A stretch of 64,000 nucleotides of DNA from an uncultured Gammaproteobacteria bacterium (GCA_964474445.1 CAYYSJ010000001.1:270530-334529), one strand, 5' to 3'. Shown: positions 25,859-60,464, counted from the stretch's first letter. Program-made: numbers and translations. The notes: a model not told the origin generated them from the letters alone.

Positions 25859-26875
25859 TCAGTACCCTTTTCTCAAGCGACTCAGAGTCTCAACAAGATA
25901 TGTTTTTAGATACCAAGGAGAGAGCGGCAAGTCTTGTGCGTGTAAAAATTCCCGCTTTTCTCCTCCAAATCCTGTTTTAAAAAGCGTTAATCCTGCCCAT
26001 GGGTGTTTTTTTGACTCATTTGATGCAATCCCCCAAAAATTGTACAGTTTTTTTCCTCTTTTTTTTGTTTCTTTGATCGCTTCCCATTGCAACAGATATG
26101 AGACAGACAAATGCCTGTAGGCATCATCACTAGCTCCATGGTGGTAAATTGCCATATTGCCGGCAAATGTAATAAGTGCGCCTCCAATGATTTTGCCTTC
26201 ATATTCAGCTAAGAAAAGCACTGCTTCTTTATCTCCCCCCAACCGTTCTAGCTCCTCCACCAGTCCCTTATGGGCAATAAATCCTCGTTGATGTGCAAGA
26301 CTATTATAGATTTCCAAAAAAGCAACAACATCCTTGTTTACTCGTTCTGTAGTAAAAATACGAATATGTTCCTTCTGAGATTTTTTGATAAGGTATCGAT
26401 GCGACTTTCTCATACCAGAAAGAATATCTTCTTCACGTTGTGTAATATCTAATACCCAACACACTTCCGCATCCATATTATGGATTGGCGAATTACGAAA
26501 TCCAAAGCTTTGCAACAATTTTTCTTCTTGCCCGTGTTTCTCAACAAGTGGACTCATTCGAATGAAATCATATCTTCCATCAGCAAGATCTTTTAGATAT
26601 GCAAGCAGCTTTTCTACATATGCTTTTTTATATTCAGCAAAAATTGGTCCATGTCTCAGATGTAAATAGTTACCTCGCTTTGCTTTTACAGAGACAACTT
26701 GCGCAATACCCACTAATGTTTCATTGTCATAGATACCTAAGCGATGTATACGAAACCCTAATGTTTGCTGCACTTCTCCCCAATTCCACGTTTGGAAAAA
26801 GGGGAAAAAGCCTTTGTAATGCTGAAGAAATGTATTCCAAATCGTTTTGCTCGTAACTTCTTTAATTTTTACCAT
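25859..26875 (-). CDS. FemAB-family aminoacyltransferase (lipid II peptide branch addition)
   Basis: YHHGASDDAYRHLSVSYLLQWEAIKETKKRG and FKTGFGGE match conserved FemABX blocks. Confidence 0.8.
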   Translation of the reverse strand: MVKIKEVTSKTIWNTFLQHYKGFFPFFQTWNWGEVQQTLGFRIHRLGIYDNETLVGIAQVVSVKAKRGNYLHLRHGPIFAEYKKAYVEKLLAYLKDLADGRYDFIRMSPLVEKHGQEEKLLQSFGFRNSPIHNMDAEVCWVLDITQREEDILSGMRKSHRYLIKKSQKEHIRIFTTERVNKDVVAFLEIYNSLAHQRGFIAHKGLVEELERLGGDKEAVLFLAEYEGKIIGGALITFAGNMAIYHHGASDDAYRHLSVSYLLQWEAIKETKKRGKKLYNFWGIASNESKKHPWAGLTLFKTGFGGEKREFLHAQDLPLSPWYLKTYLVETLSRLRKGY

Positions 26876-28082
26876 ATGCTTTTACTATCTTAACAACTTT
26901 TTCTCTCTCTTTTCTAGAGAGCGTTGGATATGTCGGAAGATTGATAATATGTGCTGCGAGATACTCTGCCTTTGGACAATCCTTTTTGTAACCCACTTTT
27001 GATAGATTTGTTTCATGAGGATCGATAACATGAGCATACCAATCTCCTAAAAGGATTCCTGCATGTTTTGCAAGTTTTTTCAGGTGGGTAGGATGTCTTA
27101 CTAAGAGTGGGTAACGAAGCAACGGAATGCCTGGAAAATGCTTTCCTCCCACTTCGGATAGTTCTTGTGCATAAAATCCTGCTGTTTCTTCCCGATATGT
27201 ATTAAATCTATCCAGCCTTTTCAATTGAAGAAGCGCTAAATAAGCAAGTTGGGGAGGCAATTTTTTTGTAAAATTTGAAAAATGTCGTAGCTCGTTTTTT
27301 GTAACCGGTTTAGCAAGAAGATGAAGTTTTTGACATAACAGAAGAACTATTTTTCCAAGAAGTATGTTGTATAAAGGTAAAATGAGAAAGAAGAAGACTA
27401 CACTATGGAATAACTGCTGAAATATCCAGAAAGAGGATGGGTATTGTTGTTGGATATAGTATGCAGAAAGACGCTGTCCAATTTCCTTACTACTCGTTAT
27501 CACGACACCACCAGATACAGAGGAAAATGCCTTATCCCGTCCAAAACTAAAAACTGCTGCATCACCTATTGTTCCAAGCTTTCTTCCTTTGTACGTACTG
27601 CCAATCGCATGCGCAACATCTTCAATGACAAATAATTGCTTTTCCTTAAGAAATTTTTCTAACTCTGGTGTATAGGCAGGAATACCAAACGTATGTTGCA
27701 GAAGAATGGCTTTTGTTTTCTTTGTTACCTTTTTTTTCAAGTCGTCAACGTCAAGAGCAAAAGCATGGGTGATATCAACATAAACAGGTGTTGCACCAGT
27801 TGCTATGATGGCATGAGAAACAGCAACACAGGTAAATGCTTGCAGTATAACTTCATCTCCTTTTCCAATTCCCTGAATTTGTAAAAGTGTGGTTATTCCT
27901 CCTCGAGCAGAAACAAATGGGAACGCATACGGCACAGAGAAAAAATTGCAAAACCACTCAGTAAGTTTTTCATCTTCTTTTTCCTGAGAAACTTTTTTTG
28001 AAGAGAGGAGAAGCTGTAATGCAGCAATAGCATCTATTTTCTCCAAATTGGGCGCAAGCCCGAGTGCAATTGGTCTATTCAT
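26862..28082 (-). CDS. DegT/DnrJ/EryC1/StrS-family PLP-dependent sugar aminotransferase
   Basis: GDEVILQAFTCVAVSHAI, and SFGRDK containing the PLP-binding Lys. Confidence 0.85.
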   Translation of the reverse strand: MNRPIALGLAPNLEKIDAIAALQLLLSSKKVSQEKEDEKLTEWFCNFFSVPYAFPFVSARGGITTLLQIQGIGKGDEVILQAFTCVAVSHAIIATGATPVYVDITHAFALDVDDLKKKVTKKTKAILLQHTFGIPAYTPELEKFLKEKQLFVIEDVAHAIGSTYKGRKLGTIGDAAVFSFGRDKAFSSVSGGVVITSSKEIGQRLSAYYIQQQYPSSFWIFQQLFHSVVFFFLILPLYNILLGKIVLLLCQKLHLLAKPVTKNELRHFSNFTKKLPPQLAYLALLQLKRLDRFNTYREETAGFYAQELSEVGGKHFPGIPLLRYPLLVRHPTHLKKLAKHAGILLGDWYAHVIDPHETNLSKVGYKKDCPKAEYLAAHIINLPTYPTLSRKEREKVVKIVKAYGKN

Positions 28083-45085: not shown

Positions 45086-46378
45086 CTATAACATAAAGTA
45101 TTTTCTCAGGAATACTCTTACACGATACAATAAACTTGGATGGAGTGGTTCAAGAACGATTTCCTCACTATTGTCTTTGTTTGGAGAGAGAGCAATGGTT
45201 ACTGTCTGATACCCGAGATGTTGTATGGTAAGAGAAGAGGATGAATTGCTAACCAATGGTATTTGATATGTTCCACTGAAATCTGTTGTACTGGTAAAAC
45301 CATCATTAGTCATTACACTTGTATTTGTAAGCAGATCTCCGAGAGTATCTTTTATCACCCCACGGACAAATGTAGGTTGATAGTATCCATGTAAAACCTG
45401 TGCAACAAGTCGTGGTGAATCATCATCATTGAATAACGCTGTAGATCCATCCAGAATAGTCCAATAGTTTATACCAGTAATATTTTCGCTGTGCGTATAG
45501 AACACGTGGAGAAGTTTTTCTACAAAATCTGCTTGTTCTTTTTCTGTCATAGCTCCATTGAGATCAGGAATGGGTGCACCAAATTCTCCCACTACAATCT
45601 GTGCATGAAAATGTTGTATAAGATAATCAATAGTATTTTCCATATCTCTTGGATTTGCCACGTAGTGATCTACAACAACAATATGTCCGACTTTATCAAC
45701 TGTTTCTGATGTCAATACCTGTTTGGCTACATCGGCATTCATTGAAAAATAACCACACTGAACATGCTTATGTATTTGCTGCATGCTATTTATACAGTTG
45801 TTGTATGAGTTAACTAAAAAACGATTGAACCTTACAGACTTTTCATTTGATCCTCTTGGATCCCCTTCTCCACCGTTTTCTGGCTGTGGAGTTGGAGTAA
45901 AAATATCCCCATCTTCAAATAGATCCGGATGTCTTAAAATGAATGCTTTTGTCAGTTTGTGATGTTGAGATATATCAGTAAACTTTGGGTAATCAAACCA
46001 TCCTTCCCATCCTGAAAAATTGCCTCGAAACCAAACTTTGAGATGATATCTCCTTGATTCATCCACCCATTCTTTTATCGTTGGGTAAAACTCTTCATCG
46101 TAAGGAGTTGCTATGGCAATATGAGTTGGATGGAGACTTGCGACATGCTGAACAACCAGGGAGATTTCACTTCGTGTAATACTCTTTGCTTTATCGCGAG
46201 AATATTTCATAGTGTCAATAGATGTTACTTCCCAAACAGTAGACTGCTGTTGGGACTGAGTTTTTTGAGGAATTGAAAGCATTTGCTGAGTGAAGGTAAA
46301 AATGAATAGTCCTAACCCAATAAAGACACCTCCAGCAAGAGAAATAAATTCTTTTTTGCTGTCATTTCTTTTTGCCAT
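45086..46378 (-). CDS. membrane-anchored putative glycoside hydrolase (TIM-barrel-like) with C-terminal beta-sandwich
   Basis: N-terminal TM. Central region with GH-like acid/aromatic blocks (WFRGNFSGWEGWFDYP, HIVVVDHYVAN, VVGEFGAP). C-terminal carboxypeptidase-regulatory-like domain. Family not resolved. Confidence 0.4.
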   Translation of the reverse strand: MAKRNDSKKEFISLAGGVFIGLGLFIFTFTQQMLSIPQKTQSQQQSTVWEVTSIDTMKYSRDKAKSITRSEISLVVQHVASLHPTHIAIATPYDEEFYPTIKEWVDESRRYHLKVWFRGNFSGWEGWFDYPKFTDISQHHKLTKAFILRHPDLFEDGDIFTPTPQPENGGEGDPRGSNEKSVRFNRFLVNSYNNCINSMQQIHKHVQCGYFSMNADVAKQVLTSETVDKVGHIVVVDHYVANPRDMENTIDYLIQHFHAQIVVGEFGAPIPDLNGAMTEKEQADFVEKLLHVFYTHSENITGINYWTILDGSTALFNDDDSPRLVAQVLHGYYQPTFVRGVIKDTLGDLLTNTSVMTNDGFTSTTDFSGTYQIPLVSNSSSSLTIQHLGYQTVTIALSPNKDNSEEIVLEPLHPSLLYRVRVFLRKYFML

Positions 46379-47996
46379 AATAAGATATTACATGTAATTG
46401 ATCTAGATATCGTGGATTTAGTTCGTAGATATCTGCAAACGGAAAATGTTCTATTAACGTATACTTCTTAAAGCCCGGTGATGTACGAACTACTTTAAAT
46501 GTTTGATCATTTATATCATTTGTTCGCATAACAATCCACTGTGCCCATCTATCTGGATTTTTTGTGGCACTATCCCAATACGTTCCCGTCCCCTCATGAA
46601 TGAATTTACTCATGGGAAGACCTGAAGAGAAGATAATTGCATCATGAGAAGCTGCTGAAATCAAGATGAGTCCTGGCTCATCTTTAGCGTGCTTTGCCAA
46701 CCAGGTACTTACCTCTGTAACATTTTTCTGACTTGCTCCTACTCTTGCATCATCGATAGTAACGGCATCTTTACTGGCAAAAGAAAAGAACGTGACAAAC
46801 AGCAGTAGTCCAATTAGTACGGTACGTAAAGTTTTTACTTTACCGACTAAGTATCCGACAAAAATAGCAATTGAAGGAGACATCATGATCCCATACCGAA
46901 CGTTAAACAAAGTATTTCCGGAAATACCTTGTACAAAGAGTACTGAAAAACCCAAGTAAAGAGAGAGTATATTAAAAACAAGTGGTGTCAATAATGCGAG
47001 ACTGATAATTTTGGTATTACTGCAAATCTTCTTATTCAAATAAAATATCACTGCTCCAACAGCGCCGAGAAACAAGATAAATAATCCAACATTGTAAGCT
47101 AAGGCATAGTAATATACTTTAAAGGACAACGCGAGGTTACTTTTTGTTATCAGATCTCCTGCCTGGGAAAGTTGTTCTTGCTGTGCATGTGCAGAATATG
47201 GTCCGAGAGCAAAATATAACGCATCATGAAAAATAAATTGATTCCACAAGAACCATAGTGCAATGCCAAAGCCAGCAAGAGTGATAAATAAAAGAACAAG
47301 TCCTTCTGTGGCCTTGTATCCTTTTTGTTTAAAGAACACAATCGCTATCAGTATTGTAGTAACAAAAAATAAAAACCATCCATCATATCGAATGAGTGTT
47401 GTAAGCATTATCCAAAAGCTTGCTTTTACAAAATCGATTATTTTTTGTTCCTGCTGCCAAACTAAGAGATAGTATATCCCAGCAATCATTGCTGCAAGCA
47501 ATGGAAGTTCTGTCATTGCGGTGGATTGTAAATAAAGAACATTAATATTTGCGACAAAAATGAATACGCCTACAATTCTTCCTACTATTCCCGTTTCTAT
47601 TCTCTTTAAAAAGAGAAAAATAAGAAAGCCAATTGCAACAAATGAAATCATAGACTCTAGCGCTCCTGATAAACCTGAATGCCACATACCATTGTTCCAA
47701 ATAGTTGGTATCATGAGTAAATGAGGCAATGGAAGCCAGACACTTCCTATTTGTCCAAGGCCTGGTTTGAGGCCTTCAACAACACGTCTCCCAATATCTA
47801 AATGTGACCGCGCATCATTATATGCAACTCCTAAGCCATTCGTATAATAGAAAATAAAACTGACAATTGAAATGATAATTAAAATAAAAAGTACTATTTT
47901 GGGTAGTATTTTTTCAAGATCCTGTCCCTTTATTGTGAGGATGCCCTTTGCTATCTGAATATGATATTCCAATTCAAATTGTGTTAATTTTTTCAT
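46362..47996 (-). CDS. GT-C fold membrane glycosyltransferase (ArnT/PMT-like, GT39/GT83-type)
   Basis: About 12 TM helices. First extracytoplasmic loop with Asp-containing motif (YNDARSHLDIGRR), large C-terminal soluble domain. Start set at ATG 47996, which forms an ATGA overlap with the stop of the upstream gene. Confidence 0.6.
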   Translation of the reverse strand: MKKLTQFELEYHIQIAKGILTIKGQDLEKILPKIVLFILIIISIVSFIFYYTNGLGVAYNDARSHLDIGRRVVEGLKPGLGQIGSVWLPLPHLLMIPTIWNNGMWHSGLSGALESMISFVAIGFLIFLFLKRIETGIVGRIVGVFIFVANINVLYLQSTAMTELPLLAAMIAGIYYLLVWQQEQKIIDFVKASFWIMLTTLIRYDGWFLFFVTTILIAIVFFKQKGYKATEGLVLLFITLAGFGIALWFLWNQFIFHDALYFALGPYSAHAQQEQLSQAGDLITKSNLALSFKVYYYALAYNVGLFILFLGAVGAVIFYLNKKICSNTKIISLALLTPLVFNILSLYLGFSVLFVQGISGNTLFNVRYGIMMSPSIAIFVGYLVGKVKTLRTVLIGLLLFVTFFSFASKDAVTIDDARVGASQKNVTEVSTWLAKHAKDEPGLILISAASHDAIIFSSGLPMSKFIHEGTGTYWDSATKNPDRWAQWIVMRTNDINDQTFKVVRTSPGFKKYTLIEHFPFADIYELNPRYLDQLHVISYYGKKK

Positions 47997-50212
47997 GTAT
48001 GCTCCTTTCTGATATACACTCCTGCCATAAGAATAAGGCAAGACAGAAGAAGAATTGTGTAAATAGCTACGTAGTAATTCATTGCAGAAATTTTATCCTT
48101 TAGATAAAATTGCCAAACAAAAGATTTTGAATGATCTTCCTTTAACAAATCAAGATCCCGTTCGTAGGTATATTTCTCTACTTTTCCACTTATCTTTTCG
48201 AATACAGGGACTTGGATTTGTGGTGGATTGCTATTTGAGGTTAATGCTCCTATGGTATTTACAGATAAAGACCATGCGAACGGAAGGAAAAACACCAAAA
48301 GAAAGATGAGATGTTTTTTCCATGTTTCTACTGTGAAAGCGAGAAATAAGGCACAAAGTGCGTAGGAAGGGATAAGGTATCTAGCACCAAAAGCCCATCC
48401 TCCCCATGGATCTCCCCACATCATATAGAGAAGTATGTTTATGCCAATAATGGCGATCAGTAAAGAAGCAATGGAGCTATTCTTCTTATATAAATAAATA
48501 GCCCCCCAAATACTTAAAAACATTATTGGGGTAAACCATAGTACCCCTCTATCAGGTGATAACAAAAGAATATATGCGCCATTTATCATATTTCTTGTTA
48601 AGAAAAATCCCACAGCAGATTTTTTCTTCTCAAAGGCAAGACCTTTATCGACATTACTCAGTTGAAGAAGGGTTGGTTTGCCTTTTGCGTTAATGGCAGA
48701 AACGTCCAGAACCGTTCCTGCTAATTGAAACGGACTACCATAGGAATGTGTGTTAAACCAAAAGAAAAAAACAAAAGGAATAATCATTACGGCAAAAGAT
48801 AGTATTCTCACTATTTTTATCTTTATTGTCATACTGTTTTCCATAACTCTCACATATATAATTTTTCCTAATGCAAAAATTCCTATGGGAAGCATAAAGA
48901 AAACATTCGGATTATCAACAACGGGAGAAAGTGCACATAAAAACCAGATCAACGCAAGAGACCAGATTGAATCCCATGCAATTACAGCATAAAGACTCAT
49001 GAGAATAAGAAACGTAGAGATGTGATGTTGATAGAGGGAAACAGCATAGGAAAAAGCGGGTGATCCAAACAAAAAGGCAAATGCAGCAATTGTCGCGGCT
49101 CCTCGACCTGCTCCAAGTTTTATAGCGATTTTTCTGATAAGTATGGCATTTAAAAGACCAAAAAATGCAATCACGGCAAATGACCCTACTTGTGACATGC
49201 CCAATAACTTTCCGACGGAATACCCTGGAAGGATCATAAATGATATAGCGGGAGCAAAAAGAGATACATAGTGACCATTTTTAAAACCCACGTCCGGTGT
49301 AGAAAATCGTGCAAGGGGCAGGCTTAAATATAATGAGTGATTTTCTATAAATGAGTATGTTAATGCAAATCTCCCTCTTTCTGGAGACAATTCAAATGGT
49401 CCTGAATCTCTCCAGAAAGTAGAATTAAGTGTTATTTCTGTGGGATTTCCTAAAATCCCACGTAATGACAGTGCGAGTATAATACTGCAAAAAACAATAA
49501 AGAAAAATAGGGAAGCTACTTTGTTAAACTTTGTAAATCTATGAAGAAAACGTAGAAGTATATTTCTTAGGAGGATGCTTCTCTTGTTGTTAACAAGAGT
49601 TGTCTGTATATGAGACGTGTCAGTTGCTTTTATTGTATTATTTTTTAAAACCCTGTTAAAAAATTCGAGTCGTCCCCTTACATATTCTCTTAGTGAGGAA
49701 CCATTTAAGTCTTTCTTTAATTTTTCGTATTCATATAAAATTCTTTTATCATGTTTAAATATCTGAAAAATTCTTAGTCTTTCTTTACACATACTTGTAT
49801 CTGGATCCATCAAGGAAAGTTCAACAGGGAATCCTTTCCAAGAAAAATGCCATTCTATAAAATTCTTTCTGATTTTATATGGCTTTCCAAATAGACGAGT
49901 GAATGTTAGTATGTATTTATGAAAACTTTCTTTAGGGCTTACTGTATATAAATCTATATCATTCAATCCTGCAATCTTCAGACTACTAGACCCTGCGGCA
50001 ATTATTTTCAATGTGGGAAATTGTGATTTTATTATAATAATAATGTTTTGTATTGCTTTTTGGACCAGAGGATTATATGGCCCAATTCTTACTTTTTGTT
50101 TTGAAGATAGTACAAAAGAAAATAGATACTCTCTTGGACTTTGTACAAGGAGTAGAATATCTCGTCTCATTCGTTTCATCCGTTTTTTTATTTCTGACAT
50201 GTATTTTTCCAT
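47993..50212 (-). CDS. fusion protein: GrpB-like nucleotidyltransferase domain + GT-C fold membrane glycosyltransferase
   Basis: N-terminal about 230 aa with AAGSSSLKIAGLNDIDLY (GrpB/pol-beta NTase GS...DIDL motif). C-terminal about 500 aa polytopic, ER-motif loop (LSPERGRFALTYSF) like ArnT/PMT. Start uncertain (ORF extends to 50278). Confidence 0.55.
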   Translation of the reverse strand: MEKYMSEIKKRMKRMRRDILLLVQSPREYLFSFVLSSKQKVRIGPYNPLVQKAIQNIIIIIKSQFPTLKIIAAGSSSLKIAGLNDIDLYTVSPKESFHKYILTFTRLFGKPYKIRKNFIEWHFSWKGFPVELSLMDPDTSMCKERLRIFQIFKHDKRILYEYEKLKKDLNGSSLREYVRGRLEFFNRVLKNNTIKATDTSHIQTTLVNNKRSILLRNILLRFLHRFTKFNKVASLFFFIVFCSIILALSLRGILGNPTEITLNSTFWRDSGPFELSPERGRFALTYSFIENHSLYLSLPLARFSTPDVGFKNGHYVSLFAPAISFMILPGYSVGKLLGMSQVGSFAVIAFFGLLNAILIRKIAIKLGAGRGAATIAAFAFLFGSPAFSYAVSLYQHHISTFLILMSLYAVIAWDSIWSLALIWFLCALSPVVDNPNVFFMLPIGIFALGKIIYVRVMENSMTIKIKIVRILSFAVMIIPFVFFFWFNTHSYGSPFQLAGTVLDVSAINAKGKPTLLQLSNVDKGLAFEKKKSAVGFFLTRNMINGAYILLLSPDRGVLWFTPIMFLSIWGAIYLYKKNSSIASLLIAIIGINILLYMMWGDPWGGWAFGARYLIPSYALCALFLAFTVETWKKHLIFLLVFFLPFAWSLSVNTIGALTSNSNPPQIQVPVFEKISGKVEKYTYERDLDLLKEDHSKSFVWQFYLKDKISAMNYYVAIYTILLLSCLILMAGVYIRKEHT

Positions 50213-51002: not shown

Positions 51003-52101
51003 GGTGTTTAAGTATAGTATTCACAAATGTTTTGTATTTTTTTGCTATGTTATCCCATGTTTGCAATGTAACTAATTTCCTTCCCCTTTCGGACAACAAT
51101 TTCCTTAGTTTTATGTCTTTTGATAGTTTTACCATTGCTTTTCCAAACATATGTGAATTAAAAATAGGAATCTTTATAGAAACAGATTTTGGAATCCAAC
51201 GTAAACCAGGAATGTCAAAACATACTATTGGTATTCCATAGTTAAGAGATTCGAGTGCTATTAATGAGTACGTTTCATATCGTGATGGAATAACGACAAA
51301 AATTGCATTTCTCAGAAGCCTTTTTTTCTTTTCTCCTTCTATTCTTCCAACAAAAATAATATTCTTACCTAAATGAAGTTTCCTAACAAGAGATTTTAAT
51401 ATTTCCTGATCTGCTGGCATCCCTGATCCAGCTATCACAAGAGAAAAATCCAATTCATCTTGTACTGTTTTGTAACTTTCCAATAATAAATCTAGTCCTT
51501 TTTGATTTACTTCTAACCTGCCCATAAAAAGTATGTATTTTTTGTTGTTTGTACTCATTGGCTTTTCATGATGAATCCCATTAGGAATAATAGTAACGAA
51601 AGATTCAGCATTCTTTTTTTGTATGAGTGCCTTTGAATACTTACTAAGAACAATAAAGTATCTATATGTGCGTAGACCAAAATCTTCAATAACATGAAAA
51701 GGTAACTTATATTTTCTTTCCATATCTGCAGCACAAAGCATATGGACCAAGCCAATAACTGGTTTTTTTGTGACTAACTGCAAAAATCCCGTAGAAAATG
51801 GTGGAGTAAAATTCTCAATCCATACATCGAATTTCTGTGACATAGCATAGAATGGAAGAAGTAGTTGATATACAAATTGTTCAAATTGTGGATTACCAAA
51901 GGGATAACCAATCCTTTTGTAGGTAATGTTATCTATCTTCTCATCTGAACTATTTTTAAACTTTGCTGTTATAATGGACACGTCATAGCTTGAGGAAATT
52001 TTTTTTGCAATTTCGTGTATCGCAATTGCACCTCCTCCTGAATAATAAGGATTTCCAATTGAGTCGTAATTAGAGAAAATGATTGTCTTTTTTTTATTCA
52101 T
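50995..52101 (-). CDS. GT4-family glycosyltransferase (GT-B)
   Basis: C-terminal FMGRLEVNQKGLD...SRYETYSLIALESLNYGIPIV with EX7E motif. Confidence 0.8.
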   Translation of the reverse strand: MNKKKTIIFSNYDSIGNPYYSGGGAIAIHEIAKKISSSYDVSIITAKFKNSSDEKIDNITYKRIGYPFGNPQFEQFVYQLLLPFYAMSQKFDVWIENFTPPFSTGFLQLVTKKPVIGLVHMLCAADMERKYKLPFHVIEDFGLRTYRYFIVLSKYSKALIQKKNAESFVTIIPNGIHHEKPMSTNNKKYILFMGRLEVNQKGLDLLLESYKTVQDELDFSLVIAGSGMPADQEILKSLVRKLHLGKNIIFVGRIEGEKKKRLLRNAIFVVIPSRYETYSLIALESLNYGIPIVCFDIPGLRWIPKSVSIKIPIFNSHMFGKAMVKLSKDIKLRKLLSERGRKLVTLQTWDNIAKKYKTFVNTILKHHG

Positions 52102-55100
52102 GTATTTGCTACGGTACTTATTTCAGGTTCTGGAACCATTTGTACTGTCTCGCTCATAAATAGTTGTAAACTTTCTTTAGCACTCGTATCCCAGTCATAA
52201 ATTTTTGCCCATTCTATAGCGTTTCTTGATAATTGTTCTCTCAGGTTGTTATTGGTAATAATTTCAATAATCTTTTGTGCAAATGCATCAGCATTACCAT
52301 ACTCAACAAGAAAACCCGTATTGGGATTGTTAATTGAGTCACATAAACCAGGAACATCTGAAGCAATAGCAGGTGTTCCACACGCATTTGCCTCAATCGT
52401 TGTAATTCCCCATCCTTCTATCATTGATGGGTTAACTAGTACCCATGATTTTTGGAATAATTCAATTTTTTCTTTTTCAGTAATTTGTCCTAAGAAGAAA
52501 ACATTGTTTTCAATTTGTAATTTTCCTACAAGCTTTTGCATTCTCTTTTTATCTTCACCATCACCCGCAATAATAAATTGTATATCTGACATCTTTTGGA
52601 GAATTTTATCAGCCGCATGAATAAGTACCTGAAGACTTTTATAGAATTGAATTCTTCCTACGTACAAAATAATTGGTTTTTCATTCTTCTTACCAGGTTT
52701 GAATTTAGTCAAATCTACCCCATTGTAAATAATAGTTGGTTCAATAGTTGTAAGTTTATGAGATAGTATGGCTTGCTTGGTTGACGGAGAAACCGTAAAA
52801 ATTTGTGTATTTTTATACACAAGCGGCATAAGTTTTAATTCTAAAAAGGAGGCCAGCCAAGAGAAAGGAGGTATAAGGGATTTTCTAAATACTTCTTGAT
52901 GCACATGGTGAATAAGAAGAAATATTTTTTGCCTAGCGTAGAGCGGTGTAAAGAATGGTATACCATTCTCACAATCGAGAATAATATTGTAGCTATTTCT
53001 ATATTTGAATATGTAATACAAAAATGCCCAAACATACACAAAATAAAAACCTCCTCTTCTTTGTACTTCTACCCCATCAATAATTTCATGTTTTAAAGAT
53101 TTTCCATCATTGCTGCAAAATAATGTTACCAGATAACCATCTTTGATCCATCGTTTTGAAAGTTCATGAATGTATATCTCTGCTCCTCCAGCAAACTTAT
53201 GTCTTGTATCTCTCCAATTAAATATTAAAATGGCTTTCCTATCCCTGTTTACATTAGGTGATTCCTGCGAGAAGAATAATTCAAAAACATCCTTCAGATT
53301 ATTTTCAAATACTATAACGTGTTTTCGCATGAGGTGAAGTAGAACCATTCCTATGATATGTAATGCAGCAGTAGTAACCATTACTTCTACAAAATCAGCA
53401 ATACTTTGATGAATGAGTTGTAAGAGTATTATTTGTATTATTCCTAACACAAAAGCGAGTAAAGAAAATGTGTATATTTTCTTTGCTAGATAAAACGAAA
53501 CAATAATTTGTGATAGAGAAAAACAAACCAACCCTAAACAAAATACTGGTAGATAATCTGTTATCGATATTGCTTTTGGTCCAAAAAAAAGAGGGACCGT
53601 TAGATAACCAAATAAGCCGAGTACTATATAGCCAAAAGATGTTAGTAAACCAGCCGAAAGCAATGTGTACGTTAGCACGTGGTCTGAATTTTTATTAGCT
53701 CCTTCGCTTCGACTAACAAGAGGCATAATAAAGGGAAATACTAAAGAAGCTAGAAAATAAATTATTTTCCCTGTCAATGAAAGTAACGAATATTTTCCAG
53801 CATCCAAAGGTGGTAAAAAGTGTTTTGCTAAGATAACATCCAAACTCAAAAAACTTATTGCTGATAATCCTCCAAGAACAGATACTAAAAAGAATTTAAT
53901 TGGGAAACTCATTTGGTAAATAGTTTCTTTCAGGGATATATGTTTTGTCGTTAGTACTAATACAACTAATCCAAAAACAAAAGATGAAATAACAGACAAT
54001 GGAATGGAAACATACGTAAGTGAGCCACCGTAAAGAGGTGCTAGGATAAGTGCAAAAGATAATTTTATAATAGGTTCAATGACATATACGACTCCTACAA
54101 TAGCAAAAAGAAATTCCCCATACAAAAATCCCTTATTTACCGCTGTAGGAATAATGATGATAAGTAAAGGAATAAAAGAAAGGAAAACATATGGGTCGTT
54201 AATATTAAAAAAGTGCATGAATAGAGGGGAAAAGGCTATCCAAAGACAAGCAAAAAACACGGAAATGAAAAGTGATTTTTTGAATACATCTTTCCAGATA
54301 CTAAGACTTGCTCCTTTTCCATATTTCCCTACCATGTAGCTACTTTGGTGGTTAACAGTTGCACTTATAGCAGTTATCGGTATAGATAAAAAAGACAAAA
54401 AACTTCCAAGAGTGGTAATAAGTGAAAAATTTTCTAAATCTAAAACTCTCCCAAGATAGGCATTAAAAATAAAATTGAGTACATTTGCGATATTTATAGC
54501 AAGGATAAGTAAAGCCCCTTCCCAAAAAGGTTGTTTGTTTTGTAAACTGCCTATGATTTTTTCCCTCAGCGTTTCTACCGGTAAAAAAATGCTTCTTATA
54601 CCAAGAATAAGTTTTGGTATTTCCTTGTTTTTGCTTGGTTGCAAATGTAACCCATGAAGGGTTTTTTCCCAATAGTAAGGTCTGAAAAGTAATTGATACA
54701 ATGCAATAACTCCAGACCAACTAATAAGGAACCAATAGATGGGAATACAATAGACATATTTAACAAGCTCCCATTGCTCCTTTTTTGTGCATCCAAGCAT
54801 ATAGAGATATGCGAACATAAAATTCCCGAAAACTAATGAACTAAATGCAATATAGAAAACATAAGAAGGATATAATGCTTGAATAGATGGGCCAACAAGG
54901 GAAAAAAGAATAAAATAGGCAATGGTTGCAGTCCAAAGGAGTGGATTAATAAGAATAAATGCAACTTTTCCACCAATGGTAAGGTGAAAAAATAACGCAT
55001 GAATGATATTATTTTTGATAAATAAAAAATCCTCTCGTGTATGAACTAAGTATGTTTGCATATATCCTTTGATCCATCGCGATCGCTGTCGTATCCAATT

Positions 55101-56783
55101 AGCAACACTACTATTTGCTTCTTCCAAAGTAATTGATTCAATGATTGCTGTTTTGTAACCTTTCTTAAAAAGCCGTATACCCAAATCTGCATCTTCGGCT
55201 ACATTAAATGGATCCCATCCTTGAAGGTGTTTCATGTCTTCTGTTCGGAAATGGTTGCTTGTTCCACCAAGTGGAATACTAGTATGTGTCGCTTGAAGAC
55301 CAGTAAGTGTTATGTCAAACCACAAGGAATACTCAGCGGTAAAAAAACGAGTTAATAAGTTCTGGTGAGGATTGTAGTAGTTAAGCTTTGCCTGTAAACA
55401 TACAACATCTCCTGCAACTTTTTGGAATCCAAGATAAGCTTTTTTTAATTGGAATGGATCAGGGATGTCTTCTGCATCATAAATAACTACGTATTCCCCT
55501 TTTGTTTGAGAGAGTCCATAATTGCACGCTTTTGGTTTCGTTTTAGGAATTGAGTGAGGAACAATAACTGGACGAATATAGGAAGGGAGGTTTCTGTTTG
55601 TAACTGCTTCAATAAACTTTTTATCATCTTCTTCAAGGAGAAGCATGACATCAAGTTTTTCTTTCGGCCAATTAAGTTTTGCAATTGCCTCTATAAATTG
55701 TGGAATAACATCTGTTTCTTTATACAATGGACAGAGAATGGAATAGATGGGGAGATTCTCATCTTTAAGTGCGTGTAACTCATCAGGTGTTGAGAAAATT
55801 TCTTGAGGAGAATGAAGACTTCTCATAACAAGGAAAAAATTAAACAAGACATCAACAAAGTAAATAAAGCTTAAAGCGCCAATAATGCATTGTGCGGTGA
55901 AGAGTGGCTTTAGGAAAAGTCCTAGGAGTATCAATACAACGAGTAATCCAATCATTATTTTTTGTTTGCCAATAAGGGTTTGAATAGCAGATTGAGAATG
56001 ATGAAGAGTGGTATGCGTAATATATTTTCTTCTCTTATACCCCACTCCTGCTCCTTTCATCGACCCTTTATCAGTTGGAGGAAAATGAATTGGGTTAATT
56101 TTCTTTCCTTTAACTAACAATGCATTTAGTCCTATCTCAACGCTTGTCTTAAGGAGAGATACTTTTGACTTACCATTTATTCGCTGGGCGAAGATAATGT
56201 CAAAGCTTTCAACAACAAATCCTGCTTCCGTTGCACGCTGGAGGAATTCAAGATCAAATGTCCAGCCAGAGGAAGGAGCATAGGAGAGAGTCTGAAAGAC
56301 CTCCCTTTTAAAAACTTTCAACCCTGCTTGAATATCATGATTAAGGCCAAATAGAAGCTCACCAAATACATATCTAAATGAATTACTAATAAGGCTACGT
56401 ACTTTTGAGACATGTTTTTCTATCCGATTCGCAACAACAACATCTGCTCCATTCTCAAGTTTTTTGATCATTTTCGGAATTACCTCTGGAGGATATTGGA
56501 GATCTGCATCAATACATACAATATAGTCGCTCGAAGATTTTTGAATACCTTGATAAAGAGAAAAAGCTTTCCCTCTCTTTCCTTTTTTTATTTCAAATCT
56601 AATAGGATACTTTGTTTGTAGAGACTTGATAACCTGTAGGGTATTATCTGTAGAGAAATCGTCAACAAAAATAATTTCATATGACTTATTTTCTTTTACA
56701 AACGCTGTATGTATTCTGTTAACCAGCGGTGTAATATTATTTTCTTCATTCCAGACAGGAATAATAATAGTAATGTGTTTCAT
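52098..56783 (-). CDS. giant four-module glycosyltransferase: GT2 (Dpm1/ArnC-like) + processive GT2 synthase (QxxRW/TED) + polytopic flippase-like membrane domain + GT4
   Basis: Residues 5-230: IIIPVWNEE...DADLQ (GT2-A). Residues 345-590: DAED, TED, QRSRW (processive GT2 as in BcsA/PgaC/NodC), plus 4-5 TM helices. Residues 760-1160: about 12 TM helices resembling a Wzx/MOP-type polysaccharide exporter. Residues 1185-1540: GT4 with EGWGITTIE (EX7E). First ATG is at 56783; the ORF track starts at TTG 56795. Confidence 0.8.
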   Translation of the reverse strand: MKHITIIIPVWNEENNITPLVNRIHTAFVKENKSYEIIFVDDFSTDNTLQVIKSLQTKYPIRFEIKKGKRGKAFSLYQGIQKSSSDYIVCIDADLQYPPEVIPKMIKKLENGADVVVANRIEKHVSKVRSLISNSFRYVFGELLFGLNHDIQAGLKVFKREVFQTLSYAPSSGWTFDLEFLQRATEAGFVVESFDIIFAQRINGKSKVSLLKTSVEIGLNALLVKGKKINPIHFPPTDKGSMKGAGVGYKRRKYITHTTLHHSQSAIQTLIGKQKIMIGLLVVLILLGLFLKPLFTAQCIIGALSFIYFVDVLFNFFLVMRSLHSPQEIFSTPDELHALKDENLPIYSILCPLYKETDVIPQFIEAIAKLNWPKEKLDVMLLLEEDDKKFIEAVTNRNLPSYIRPVIVPHSIPKTKPKACNYGLSQTKGEYVVIYDAEDIPDPFQLKKAYLGFQKVAGDVVCLQAKLNYYNPHQNLLTRFFTAEYSLWFDITLTGLQATHTSIPLGGTSNHFRTEDMKHLQGWDPFNVAEDADLGIRLFKKGYKTAIIESITLEEANSSVANWIRQRSRWIKGYMQTYLVHTREDFLFIKNNIIHALFFHLTIGGKVAFILINPLLWTATIAYFILFSLVGPSIQALYPSYVFYIAFSSLVFGNFMFAYLYMLGCTKKEQWELVKYVYCIPIYWFLISWSGVIALYQLLFRPYYWEKTLHGLHLQPSKNKEIPKLILGIRSIFLPVETLREKIIGSLQNKQPFWEGALLILAINIANVLNFIFNAYLGRVLDLENFSLITTLGSFLSFLSIPITAISATVNHQSSYMVGKYGKGASLSIWKDVFKKSLFISVFFACLWIAFSPLFMHFFNINDPYVFLSFIPLLIIIIPTAVNKGFLYGEFLFAIVGVVYVIEPIIKLSFALILAPLYGGSLTYVSIPLSVISSFVFGLVVLVLTTKHISLKETIYQMSFPIKFFLVSVLGGLSAISFLSLDVILAKHFLPPLDAGKYSLLSLTGKIIYFLASLVFPFIMPLVSRSEGANKNSDHVLTYTLLSAGLLTSFGYIVLGLFGYLTVPLFFGPKAISITDYLPVFCLGLVCFSLSQIIVSFYLAKKIYTFSLLAFVLGIIQIILLQLIHQSIADFVEVMVTTAALHIIGMVLLHLMRKHVIVFENNLKDVFELFFSQESPNVNRDRKAILIFNWRDTRHKFAGGAEIYIHELSKRWIKDGYLVTLFCSNDGKSLKHEIIDGVEVQRRGGFYFVYVWAFLYYIFKYRNSYNIILDCENGIPFFTPLYARQKIFLLIHHVHQEVFRKSLIPPFSWLASFLELKLMPLVYKNTQIFTVSPSTKQAILSHKLTTIEPTIIYNGVDLTKFKPGKKNEKPIILYVGRIQFYKSLQVLIHAADKILQKMSDIQFIIAGDGEDKKRMQKLVGKLQIENNVFFLGQITEKEKIELFQKSWVLVNPSMIEGWGITTIEANACGTPAIASDVPGLCDSINNPNTGFLVEYGNADAFAQKIIEIITNNNLREQLSRNAIEWAKIYDWDTSAKESLQLFMSETVQMVPEPEISTVANT

Positions 56784-57142
56784 TTCTACAGACAATGCTA
56801 ATAACGATATATAGGCATTGTGTTGAACCTATGTAGGACTCTTTTGTAAGAATGGTTTTTCATACTGGCGGTTTTTATTGACTATAGGCAGACCAGTATG
56901 TAGTCCTCCTACTAAAGTAATGAGAAGTTGTTTGTCCAAATACTTTTTTCCATGTGATGGTAATGTGCTCATTTCTTTTTATGGAATTAGTATTTTCTCT
57001 ATTCTCCTTCTCGTACTATAAGTGGGACTATTAACGTTAAAATATACAGGAAGCAAGTAAAAAGAAATGATAAATATGCAACAAGTTAGTAAGAACGTTT
57101 TATAACTAAGACCATGAGAGGTTCTTTCTTCATGTGATTTTA

Positions 57143-59003: not shown

Positions 59004-60464
59004 TTACCGGAGTTTTTGCTGAAGATATGCTATAACATCTTCGATTTTTACTCGTTCTTGCTTGGCAGTGTCACGATCTCTAATAGTCACAGCGTTATCA
59101 TTGAGCGTTTCAAAATCAATCGTCACACAAAATGGTGTGCCAATTTCATCTTGTGCTAAGTATCTCTTCCCAATATTGCCCCTGTCATCCCATTGCACTT
59201 TGCCATCAATATTGTCTTGTACTAGCTCTAACACTTCACGAGCCTTTGCAACAAGCTCAGGCTTATTCGACAGGAGTGGGAAAACTGCAGCCTTTATCGG
59301 TGCCAAATGAGCAGGAAGTTTGAGCACTATCCTGTTCTCCTCCTCAGTGTATGCATCAGCAAGCACTGCAAGCATAAGCCTATTGATACCAACTGCGGGT
59401 TCAATAACATGAGGCAATATTTTTTCACCAGTTTGCGGATCGGTTACTTGCAAATCTTTTCTTGAATACTCCTGATGTTGCATCAGGTCATAATTTGTCC
59501 GGTAGGCAAGCCCCCACAATTCTTTGGTACCAAATGGAAATGCATACTCCAAATCCTCAGTTCGTTTACTGTAGAATGACCTTTCTTCATCAGTATGTGG
59601 TCTCCAGCGAAGTTTTTCTTCACGTATTCCTAATTTCTTTGTTGCAAAATCCCACATGTCTTTTTTCCACTCCTCAAAAAGACTCTCCCAATTCGTCTTT
59701 TCCGGATCAAAGAAATACTCTATCTCACCTTGCTCAAATTCAATTGTCCGAAAAATGGAATTTCCTGGAGTAATCTCATTTCTGAATGACTTACCAATTT
59801 GTGCAATACCAAATGGAAGTTTTACTCGTGTTGAGTTCATCACATTCTGAAAATTAATAAACATCCCTTGTGCTGTCTCACCTCGAAGATATCCTGATCC
59901 GCCTTCACCTTCGACAAGGCCTAACTGGACCGGAAAAAGCTGATTAAATTTTCTCACAGAAGTCCATTCATGCTTTTTACAATTTGGACATTCCACTCCA
60001 AAAAGCTTAATGAATTCATCGTATTGTTCAACAGTCCATCCTTCAACCTTTCCTGTTCCAAATGCTTTATCTAAATCTTCACGTGTTATTGTTTTCCCAT
60101 GATCAACAGTATTTCTTGCATCTTTATGCTGTTCAATCCAATCTTCTATCAAGTGATCGGCCCTGATACGAAGTTTGCAGTTTTTACAGTCAACCATTGC
60201 ATCAGCAAATGATGCGACATGACCTGAAGCTTCCCAAATTCTGTGATGAGAAATAATACTGGCATCAAGGCCAACCATGTCTGCTCGTTTAGTAACAAAT
60301 GTTTGCCACCACAAATTTTTTATGTTACGAAGTAAATCTGCACCCATTGGCCCATAATCATAGGTATTTGCTAACCCACCGTACAGATCTGAACCAGGAT
60401 AGAAAAACCCTCGCCGTTTTGCTAGCGCTACTAACTTATCCATTAAATTCTCTGTTTGTTGCAT
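59004..60464 (-). CDS. glyS: glycine--tRNA ligase (homodimeric alpha2 / eukaryote-archaeal type)
   Basis: FYPGSDLYGGLANTYDYGPMG N-terminal block, class II motifs 2 and 3, C-terminal anticodon-binding domain. Confidence 0.95.
   Translation of the reverse strand: MQQTENLMDKLVALAKRRGFFYPGSDLYGGLANTYDYGPMGADLLRNIKNLWWQTFVTKRADMVGLDASIISHHRIWEASGHVASFADAMVDCKNCKLRIRADHLIEDWIEQHKDARNTVDHGKTITREDLDKAFGTGKVEGWTVEQYDEFIKLFGVECPNCKKHEWTSVRKFNQLFPVQLGLVEGEGGSGYLRGETAQGMFINFQNVMNSTRVKLPFGIAQIGKSFRNEITPGNSIFRTIEFEQGEIEYFFDPEKTNWESLFEEWKKDMWDFATKKLGIREEKLRWRPHTDEERSFYSKRTEDLEYAFPFGTKELWGLAYRTNYDLMQHQEYSRKDLQVTDPQTGEKILPHVIEPAVGINRLMLAVLADAYTEEENRIVLKLPAHLAPIKAAVFPLLSNKPELVAKAREVLELVQDNIDGKVQWDDRGNIGKRYLAQDEIGTPFCVTIDFETLNDNAVTIRDRDTAKQERVKIEDVIAYLQQKLR

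Follow-up and report, generated by a model that had tools for sequence, protein, structure and literature searches.

A 64,000-nucleotide stretch of DNA from an uncultured Gammaproteobacteria bacterium (GCA_964474445.1, CAYYSJ010000001.1:270530-334529), here called the window, was analyzed for a minus-strand gene that joins several glycan-synthesis modules in a single chain (the fusion). Translation indicated that the open reading frame (ORF) at 52098..56795 runs for 1565 codons counted from a TTG and contains no internal stops, and the span given by the first-pass annotation is therefore intact. The start codon, however, is more likely the ATG at 56783, as an identical 1,561-amino-acid protein recorded on a 420,821-bp NCBI contig (P0001) begins there (MKHITIII); we therefore take 52098-56783 as the gene and 1,561 rather than 1565 residues as the product. 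The G+C content of the window is 31 to 41%, and the region of the fusion ORF is unremarkable within it. The fusion is followed on its 3′ side by a separate family 4 glycosyltransferase (GT4), a PIG-L family protein, two membrane proteins here called A and B, a 430-amino-acid signal-anchored protein and then the division and cell wall (dcw) cluster. ORF coordinates indicated that the genes 3′ of the fusion overlap or abut each other in a tight same-strand run (Table 1).

The fusion protein consists of four modules, M1 to M4, and domain matches, motifs and structure models bore out the order and family affinities proposed for them in the first-pass annotation: a family 2 glycosyltransferase (GT2), a synthase-type GT2, a flippase-like domain and a GT4. 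Pfam matched the GT2, GT2 synthase and GT4 units of the window protein. Hydropathy analysis indicated 18 transmembrane (TM) segments, arranged 2+4+12, with all three glycosyltransferase domains in the cytoplasm, and the distribution of lysine and arginine agreed with that topology. Motif conservation and mean identities were determined with 38 orthologues. The catalytic motifs of all modules were invariant at an overall identity of 47 to 57%, including the predicted DAD (in DxDLQYPPE), YDAED, QRSRW and EX7E motifs, and every module therefore appears to be under selection. A predicted TED motif reads AED in the window copy, although 90% or more of the orthologues have TED. Mean identity was 48% for M1, 65% for M2, 37% for M3 and 57% for M4 and, when set against the 13% of the M2-M3 linker, argues for four folded units under selection and a free linker between M2 and M3. 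We conclude that the fusion is a conserved multidomain inner-membrane enzyme of Microgenomates-type bacteria of the Candidate Phyla Radiation (CPR).

Table 1. Features of the window, and loci (L) and proteins (P) that carry related modules
Feature	Position, loci or proteins	Strand	Description or basis
Whole fusion gene	52098..56783	-	1,561 aa; ORF reaches TTG 56795; stop overlaps next start as ATGA
M1, residues 1-235	56079..56783	-	GT2 of polyprenyl-phosphate glycosyltransferase type (Pfam, PDB sequence matches, motifs)
Conserved linker, residues 236-275	55959..56078	-	SM.GAG.GYK...YITHTTL; predicted beta-hairpin; 56% mean identity
M2, residues 276-715	54639..55958	-	Membrane-embedded processive-type GT2; 2 TM + GT-A + 4 TM (Pfam, BcsA match, AlphaFold2, Foldseek, motifs)
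Variable M2-M3 linker, residues 716-750	54534..54638	-	13% mean identity; predicted cytoplasmic
M3, residues 751-1160	53304..54533	-	12-TM MOP-superfamily (Wzx/PST-like) flippase domain (model)
M4, residues 1185-1545	52149..53231	-	Cytoplasmic GT4, GT-B fold (PF13439 + PF00534, motifs)
Separate GT4, 368 aa	50995..52101	-	Translationally coupled to fusion by ATGA overlap; variable part of locus
PIG-L family de-N-acetylase, 260 aa	50220..51002	-	Variable part of locus
Membrane protein A, 761 aa	47993..50278	-	C-terminal ~510 aa polytopic, conserved in CPR loci; GT-C-like candidate
Membrane protein B, 559 aa from TTG (NCBI: 544 aa)	46362..48041	-	Polytopic, no Pfam family
Secreted protein, 430 aa	45086..46378	-	Signal-anchored, conserved; C-terminal CarboxypepD_reg
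dcw cluster	19505-43905	-	mraZ, mraW, ftsI, several Mur ligases, murA, glmU-like, glmS, mraY, ftsW, murG, ftsA, ftsZ
DegT/DnrJ-type aminotransferase	26862-28082		Within dcw cluster
FemAB-family gene	25859-26875		Within dcw cluster
Class II aminoacyl-tRNA synthetase	59004-60464	-	Upstream of locus
DUF4012 protein, 540 aa	62217-63839	-	Upstream of locus
M2-M3-M4	L012, L013, L021, L024, L029		tblastn
M1-M2-M4, no M3	L025, L027, L034, L046		tblastn
M1-M2-M4, then M3 as next ORF	L026, L033		tblastn
M1-M2 / M3-M4 split	L036, L037, L040, L043		tblastn
M2 / M3-M4 split	L038, L039		tblastn
M2 / M3 split	L050, L051		tblastn
M1-M2 / M4 split	L019		tblastn
M1-M2 alone	L022, L030, L032, L035, L054		tblastn
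M1 / M2-M3-M4 split	L011, L015		tblastn
M3-clade fusions	P0244, P0248, P0262; P0243; P0280; P0304		MOP-GT4; MOP-GT2; MOP-GT4-GT2; MOP-GT4-GNAT
Loci under non-CPR MAG titles	L005, L007, L008, L010, L019, L020, L024 and others		See text
B-family loci	L058:9800-12808, L060, L062, L063, L069:11367-13211, L078:5462-9162
Non-CPR example loci	L078:5462-17740; L069:9098-13211		Desulforamulus aeronauticus DSM 10349; Paraconexibacter sp.

M1 matched Pfam PF00535 (Glycos_transf_2) at residues 5 to 164 (4e-40), and its best PDB sequence matches were the dolichyl-phosphate mannose synthase (DPMS) of Pyrococcus furiosus (7e-25), ArnC (3e-18) and GtrB (4e-16). The module carries DD41-42, D92-x-D94-LQYPPE (D92-A-D94) and R201..G204.S206K, the last together with an amphipathic stretch at 208 to 230; D92, D94, L95 and Y97 do not vary among the orthologues, and each of Q96, P98, P99 and E100 is kept in 90% or more of them. 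No match to GtrA_DPMS_TM was found in M1 with Pfam, and the TM pair at 276 to 318 is either shared with M2 or part of it, because stand-alone homologues of M2 match from about residue 250 to 265. Scores fell well below the curated NCBIfam cutoffs for ArnC (77.9 bits versus 529), PgfS (78.6 versus 500) and AglJ (69.6 versus 325). We conclude that M1 is probably a GT-A GT2 of the polyprenyl-phosphate glycosyltransferase type that is related to ArnC, PgfS and AglJ, and that it appears to be an orthologue of no named enzyme.

M2, the most conserved module of the fusion, matched Pfam Glyco_tranf_2_3 / Glyco_trans_2_3 at residues 347 to 646 (2e-28 and 6e-21) and, weakly, the PDB sequence of BcsA (1e-7). 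An AlphaFold2 model of residues 240 to 745 (pLDDT 83, pTM 0.84) was compared with known structures by Foldseek, and the top matches were BcsA, hyaluronan synthase (HAS) of Chlorella virus, Xenopus HAS1, PcManGT and yeast Chs1. Alignment of the predicted model extended over 442 to 458 columns, membrane helices included, with TMq values of 0.57 for BcsA and 0.54 for Xenopus HAS1. The motifs EDD384-387, YDAED435-439, PLGGTSNHF504-512, AED529-531 and QRSRW566-570 were all identified, with invariant catalytic residues. PilZ was not matched in the fusion by Pfam, the scanned ORFs of the window locus included no BcsB gene, and a weak match to PF13506 was returned. We conclude that M2 is modeled as a glycosyltransferase domain packed on a TM bundle, consistent with a processive, membrane-integrated GT2 synthase.

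The fold of M3 was established by modeling, because searches with the window copy, whether in Pfam (E ≤ 1), in NCBIfam or in the PDB (with a single sequence or a profile as query), gave no match. The model predicts 12 TM helices in two six-helix lobes, the fold of the MOP (multidrug/oligosaccharidyl-lipid/polysaccharide) superfamily, and thus supports the proposal that the middle region is a flippase-like domain in its own right and not the tail of the synthase. Among 20 orthologous M3 domains, five matched PF01943 (best 2e-8), four matched PF13440 (best 4e-15) and one matched MatE. The residues YLGR776-779, D982, AG.Y995-998 and K1006 are invariant. The first-pass annotation had assigned M3 to export; its flippase-like nature stands, but flipping of a lipid-linked sugar or oligosaccharide seems a better reading than export of polymer, because M2 has a BcsA/HAS-like membrane part of its own. 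Gene context suggests that the substrate of M3 may be a polyprenyl-phosphate-linked glycan.

M4 matched PF13439 (Glyco_transf_4, 1e-13) and PF00534 (Glycos_transf_1, 2e-48) over residues 1199 to 1525, and it contains NWRD..H...GGAE1189-1202 and an invariant E1456-x7-E1464. Its features are those expected of a two-Rossmann, GT-B GT4 of the retaining type. The best NCBIfam matches of M4 were to MshA and BshA (91 bits), and the Agl16 model was matched below its cutoff. Cellulose synthase, poly-N-acetylglucosamine synthase, MshA/BshA and ArnC were considered as identities for the modules and rejected, as the curated equivalog scores are far below their cutoffs (CelA, TIGR03030 on M2, 66 bits versus 699; PgaC, 98 versus 422; ArnC, 78 versus 529; MshA, 113 versus 462). 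We conclude that all modules belong to known superfamilies and that none appears to fall in a characterized orthologous group.

A search with the full-length protein gave more than 120 clusters, with members of 1,513 to 1,922 amino acids, at 47 to 57% identity and 98 to 100% coverage, drawn from NCBI, ENA, JGI and Logan assemblies and in some cases from contigs of up to 1 Mb. Named full-length relatives (Levybacteria, Woesebacteria and Patescibacteria) carry only the label "glycosyltransferase." A scan of GTDB species representatives gave at least 599 related loci, and all four modules share one uninterrupted ORF in roughly two dozen genomes of that set (Woese-, Dojka-, Roizman- and other CPR). 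The split forms seen in some genomes, either M1 / M2-M3-M4 (L011 and L015) or M1-M2 / M3-M4 (L036, L037 and L040), could suggest that a frameshift, misassembly or chimeric contig had fused separate genes. Such an artifact is exceedingly improbable given the independence of the assemblies behind the full-length clusters, the uninterrupted ORFs in GTDB, the absence of an internal stop in the window ORF and the identical protein on record. More than 120 independent assemblies show this same fusion. The first-pass annotation did not recognize a described enzyme class in it, and full-text literature searching gave no account of a synthase-type GT2 and a Wzx-type flippase in one chain, but the fusion is not rare and forms a large CPR family in public databases.

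The full CPR-type fusion, together with A and B, was also found in many metagenome-assembled genomes (MAGs) titled "uncultured Gammaproteobacteria," "Bdellovibrionales," "Verrucomicrobiia" and "Sulfotelmatobacter." These non-CPR titles are probably taxonomic mislabels or the result of bin contamination.

Searches of 84 loci with the four modules by tblastn indicated that the modules are joined and separated in many combinations (Table 1). Because such permutations constitute Rosetta-stone evidence, they argue that all four activities serve a single process, and the sequences point to M1-M2 and M3-M4 as two tighter subunits of the fusion. When M3 was used as a profile query against 1.84 billion representative proteins, 938 clusters were found at E ≤ 1e-30. 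Members of this clade occur as stand-alone proteins (410 to 470 amino acids), commonly as MOP-GT4 fusions (720 to 860 amino acids), and further as MOP-GT2, MOP-GT4-GT2, MOP-GT4-GNAT, M2-MOP-GT4 and the four-module form. The Wzx-like MOP domains of the M3 clade thus habitually carry C-terminal cytoplasmic glycosyltransferases.

The order of the locus, from the fusion through variable glycosyltransferase and sugar-modifying genes to A, B and the secreted protein, is kept among relatives. Four CPR relatives have, after the fusion, a variable set of GT2, GT4, methyltransferase, aminotransferase and deacetylase genes, two Pfam-less proteins of about 500 to 545 amino acids, a protein of about 330 to 420 amino acids and then a sortase. 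Analysis by blastp identified orthologues of A (28 to 55% identity), B (59 to 66%) and the secreted protein (38 to 44%) in CPR relatives. These most conserved partners lie downstream of the coordinates of the first-pass annotation and were missed by it.

The variable part of the window locus consists of the separate GT4, which weakly matched NCBIfam models for GlcNAc-phosphatidylglycerol synthase and lipoteichoic acid-anchor glycosyltransferases, and the PIG-L family de-N-acetylase, in place of which one relative (L004) has a Polysacc_deac_1 gene. The pairing of a GT4 with PIG-L follows the logic of MshA/MshB, BshA/BshB and PIG-A/PIG-L and could indicate that M4, the downstream GT4 and PIG-L make a glucosamine-containing glycolipid anchor, which M3 would flip much as a lipoteichoic acid-anchor flippase does and which M2 and the GT-C-like proteins would elongate to a lipoglycan. 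The MshA and BshA matches of M4, the matches of the downstream GT4 to lipoteichoic acid-anchor enzymes and the frequency of the MOP-GT4 unit are in keeping with a glycolipid anchor. The NCBIfam scores, however, are all far below curated cutoffs, and neither PIG-L nor the second GT4 is kept across related loci, so that anchor synthesis cannot be the general function of the fusion. We consider this explanation improbable.

The conserved part of the locus includes A and B. Comparison by hhalign shows them to be distant paralogues (probability 95.7%, E = 1e-8, 379 columns) with an aligned acidic residue in the first outside loop, and in B that loop contains the invariant D76. Residues 1 to 250 of A form an extra cytoplasmic domain that is absent from orthologues of about 503 to 530 amino acids and has as its sole match a weak one to GrpB (nucleotidyltransferase-like, E = 0.03). 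The B family is very large, and all of its named members are annotated as "hypothetical protein" with no Pfam domain. Neither A nor B matched the PDB by sequence, and PDB profile searches with A, B and the secreted protein gave nothing useful. Weak matches of A and B to the NCBIfam "LA_3751/LA_3752 putative glycosyltransferase" family were obtained, and there is a hint from sequence that both may be GT-C-type enzymes. A secreted protein of about 330 to 430 amino acids with a conserved GEFG stretch follows B in most CPR loci; the CarboxypepD_reg domain is an addition of the window copy. Weak matches to Glyco_hydro_cc and GH10 (E = 0.003 to 0.07) and weak hints of clan GH-A suggest that it may be a glycoside hydrolase of the kind typical of synthase-dependent operons.

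Among the ORFs scanned in the window between 19.5 and 64 kb, no phosphoglycosyl transferase besides MraY was found, and M1 is therefore the only candidate initiator of a lipid-linked track in the scanned parts. Neither a Wzy polymerase (Wzy_C) nor a chain-length regulator was found among those ORFs, and the four relatives likewise had no initiating phosphoglycosyl transferase, Wzy polymerase or chain-length regulator. These absences bear on a Wzx/Wzy-like explanation, in which M1, M2, M4 and the neighboring glycosyltransferases would be nonprocessive and would build one lipid-borne repeat unit, M3 would flip it, and A and B would be the polymerase and ligase. The combination of a MOP flippase with several cytoplasmic glycosyltransferases, the variation in glycosyltransferase content between strains and the polytopic nature of A and B, comparable to Wzy and WaaL, are consistent with such a system, and the PF13506 match serves as a reminder that QxxRW is not exclusive to processive enzymes. 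Nonetheless, the structural match of the M2 model to BcsA and HAS covers about 450 columns and takes in the membrane helices, stand-alone M2 homologues occur with MshEN domains and beside a BcsB-domain protein as in synthase-dependent systems, and the locus lacks an initiating phosphoglycosyl transferase, Wzy_C and chain-length regulator among the ORFs scanned. We give a Wzx/Wzy-like system a low probability.

The dcw cluster downstream is complete, lies on the same strand as the fusion and includes two nucleotidyltransferases. It is interrupted by DegT/DnrJ-type aminotransferase and FemAB-family genes, which suggests an unusual peptidoglycan precursor or cross-bridge. Upstream of the locus are genes for a DUF4012 protein and a class II aminoacyl-tRNA synthetase, and no tRNA genes were found in the 64-kb window. 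Two Levybacteria-type relatives have a small HTH_17 (excisionase-like) gene that overlaps the fusion start (L001:9784-10011 and L002:9763-10008); no such gene was found upstream of the window fusion.

Outside the CPR, M2 (residues ~250 to 715) occurs as a stand-alone protein, often with an MshEN domain, at 44 to 57% identity in Chloroflexota, Ktedonobacteria, Actinomycetota (Paraconexibacter, Nocardioides and Solirubrobacterales), Bacillota and Dormibacterota. The homologues of Paraconexibacter and Desulforamulus carry an N-terminal MshEN domain, and by their domain content are probably second-messenger-controlled exopolysaccharide synthases of the NfrB kind. The cluster of Desulforamulus aeronauticus DSM 10349 runs from two B-family genes through the MshEN-synthase, a BcsB-domain protein and a DPMS-like GT2-GtrA_DPMS_TM protein to ManC and ManB. 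Because synthase, polyprenyl-phosphate-sugar synthase and B all occur in that cluster, the triad appears to predate the fusion. The Desulforamulus operon is itself an uncharacterized exopolysaccharide system in a cultivable host, probably controlled by cyclic di-GMP.

The M2 homologue has a B-family neighbor in 71 of the 84 loci, from the CPR, Chloroflexota, Actinomycetota, Bacillota and Dormibacterota, and in four Chloroflexota loci B is fused to the C terminus of M2 in one ORF of about 970 to 1,003 amino acids. B therefore looks like an unrecognized obligate partner of the M2-type synthase, and full-text literature searching did not find this constant partner described. The distribution suggests that the ancestral unit was synthase plus B, with a polyprenyl-phosphate-sugar synthase already a neighbor, and that the CPR would then have gained M1 at the N terminus of M2, in the place of MshEN, and M3-M4 at the C terminus.

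The close association of M1, M2 and B also raises the possibility of a single track, in which the polyprenyl-phosphate-sugar made by M1 primes M2, M2 processively elongates and extrudes the chain, a GT-C-type B transfers it en bloc to peptidoglycan, protein or a lipid anchor, and M3-M4 serve a separate linkage unit or cap. Consistent with priming, M1-M2 is the tightest N-terminal pairing and is fused in many CPR loci, M1 and M2 are neighbors in Desulforamulus, Chloroflexi (L070) and Dormibacterota (L072), and M2-B is an obligate pair, fused in Chloroflexota; moreover, M3-M4 is an independent unit in many genomes, and GT-C enzymes use polyprenyl-phosphate-linked donors (PMC8035078). The products of DPMS/GtrB/ArnC-type enzymes, however, are known as single-sugar donors and not as primers of synthases (PMC8035078; AepG, PMC9943897), most non-CPR loci with M2 and B have no nearby M1-like gene, and the signal for a GT-C nature of B is weak. 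We regard a single primed track as unlikely.

We favor a two-track model, in which a backbone made by the synthase and lipid-linked sugars flipped separately are joined outside the cell, and to which we assign a probability of about 0.45. The model is built on what was observed: the identity and fold of the modules, conservation of their catalytic motifs, their topology, and linkage by fusion and neighborhood. In the first track, M2, presumably processive, would polymerize a beta-linked backbone from a nucleotide sugar and pass it through its own six-helix membrane part, with B as an obligate partner. In the second track, M1 would load a sugar onto polyprenyl phosphate at the inner leaflet, M4 and the products of the variable GT2 and GT4 genes may extend the lipid-linked unit, M3 would flip its presumed cargo across the membrane, and A and/or B, if they are indeed GT-C-like enzymes, would transfer the unit to the backbone or to another envelope acceptor. 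The extension step is probable because cytoplasmic glycosyltransferases need such an acceptor. Such a pathway would yield a decorated surface polysaccharide that varies between strains, and its genes lie beside the division and cell wall cluster. The coupling of donor synthesis, polymerization, export and decoration proposed in the first-pass annotation is thus plausible in light of the permutations and the neighborhood, but the wiring from module to module is our inference.

Several observations weigh against two tracks. M3 is linked most tightly to M4 and not to M1, and some CPR fusions have no M3 or no M1. The D,D,D,QxxRW signature of M2 also occurs in nonprocessive lipid glycosyltransferases (GT21), in line with the weak PF13506 match. 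B also accompanies M2 in loci that have no M1-like gene within 10 kb, and B need not therefore depend on the product of M1. The GT-C signal of A and B is weak (PMT/PMT_2, E = 0.001 to 0.0075, in two to three of seven members), and their matches to NF047440 (6e-9 for A; 2e-5) are far below the cutoff. Finally, the window M3 has no Pfam match, and the fold alone does not separate Wzx from MATE.

A broader version of the two-track model can be put forward only tentatively, as a proposal more apt to fail than to hold. The fusion, A and B would form the core machinery that makes the main envelope glycopolymer in Microgenomates-type CPR bacteria, by a hybrid route not described in bacteria. Oligosaccharides, to be joined outside the cell with the backbone from the synthase, would be built on polyprenyl monophosphate and begun by a DPMS-like domain, in the manner of haloarchaeal Agl/Aep, and not by a phosphoglycosyl transferase, flipped by a Wzx-type domain of the same chain and transferred by a new GT-C-like A/B family. 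B would in addition be the obligate partner of a widespread exopolysaccharide synthase of Terrabacteria.

The CPR, or Patescibacteria, account for much of bacterial diversity. Their genomes are minimal, they live attached to other cells, and to our knowledge the chemistry of their envelopes is essentially undescribed. A conserved enzyme of about 1,560 residues directly upstream of the division and cell wall cluster is a strong candidate for making the main CPR surface glycan. Synthase-dependent and flippase-dependent routes are textbook alternatives, and the permutations amount to a natural experiment indicating joint action of a BcsA-type synthase, a polyprenyl-phosphate-sugar synthase, a Wzx-type flippase and a GT4. 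The B family adds a large unannotated partner of the synthase in Chloroflexota, Actinomycetota and Bacillota, some of them cultivable. Because B and the synthase occur in Desulforamulus aeronauticus DSM 10349 and Paraconexibacter, the hypothesis is testable in tractable organisms. Sequences of the fusion are abundant in public databases; what appears to be new, by full-text literature searching, is the combination in one chain and the constant partner B.

Compared with known systems, M2 resembles BcsA, HAS and chitin synthase in being a TM-flanked GT-A domain with D, DxD, (T/A)ED and QRSRW, and its non-CPR orthologues resemble the NfrB-type MshEN synthases in carrying an MshEN domain, which binds cyclic di-GMP, and in one case in adjoining a BcsB-domain gene. 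M2 differs from BcsA in that it has neither PilZ nor MshEN, is partnered by the B family rather than BcsB and is fused to three more modules. M3 differs from Wzx (PST) and MurJ in that it sits in a multienzyme chain, habitually with a C-terminal glycosyltransferase, and in that no Pfam model fits the window copy.

In the multicomponent transmembrane glycosylation systems CsbB/GtcA/YfhO, GtrB/GtrA/GtrC and GacI-J/GacK/GacL, a GT-A polyprenyl-phosphate-sugar synthase, a flippase and a GT-C enzyme decorate a separate polymer, and GacK is the Wzx-type flippase of such a system in Gram-positive bacteria (PMC8035078). M1, M3 and A/B would fit the three roles. The present system differs from these in that M1 and M3 are fused to each other and to a backbone synthase, in that no GtrA/DPMS TM domain was matched in M1, and in the weaker signal for A/B as GT-C enzymes. 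In archaea, the DPMS-like AepG supplies dolichyl-phosphate-glucuronic acid for exopolysaccharide (PMC9943897), and in the Haloferax Agl pathway the DPMS-like AglJ starts an oligosaccharide linked to dolichyl phosphate, with AglR/Agl15 as flippases and transfer by a GT-C enzyme (PMC3871713). The haloarchaeal proteins AglJ/AglG/AglI/AglE, AglR/Agl15 and AglB/AglS thus offer a likeness to the proposed route in the DPMS-like start, the extension by soluble glycosyltransferases, the Wzx-like flip, the GT-C transfer and the absence of any need for a phosphoglycosyl transferase. The present system differs from haloarchaeal Agl/Aep in being bacterial, in having its steps fused in one chain and in including an extra, BcsA-like synthase.

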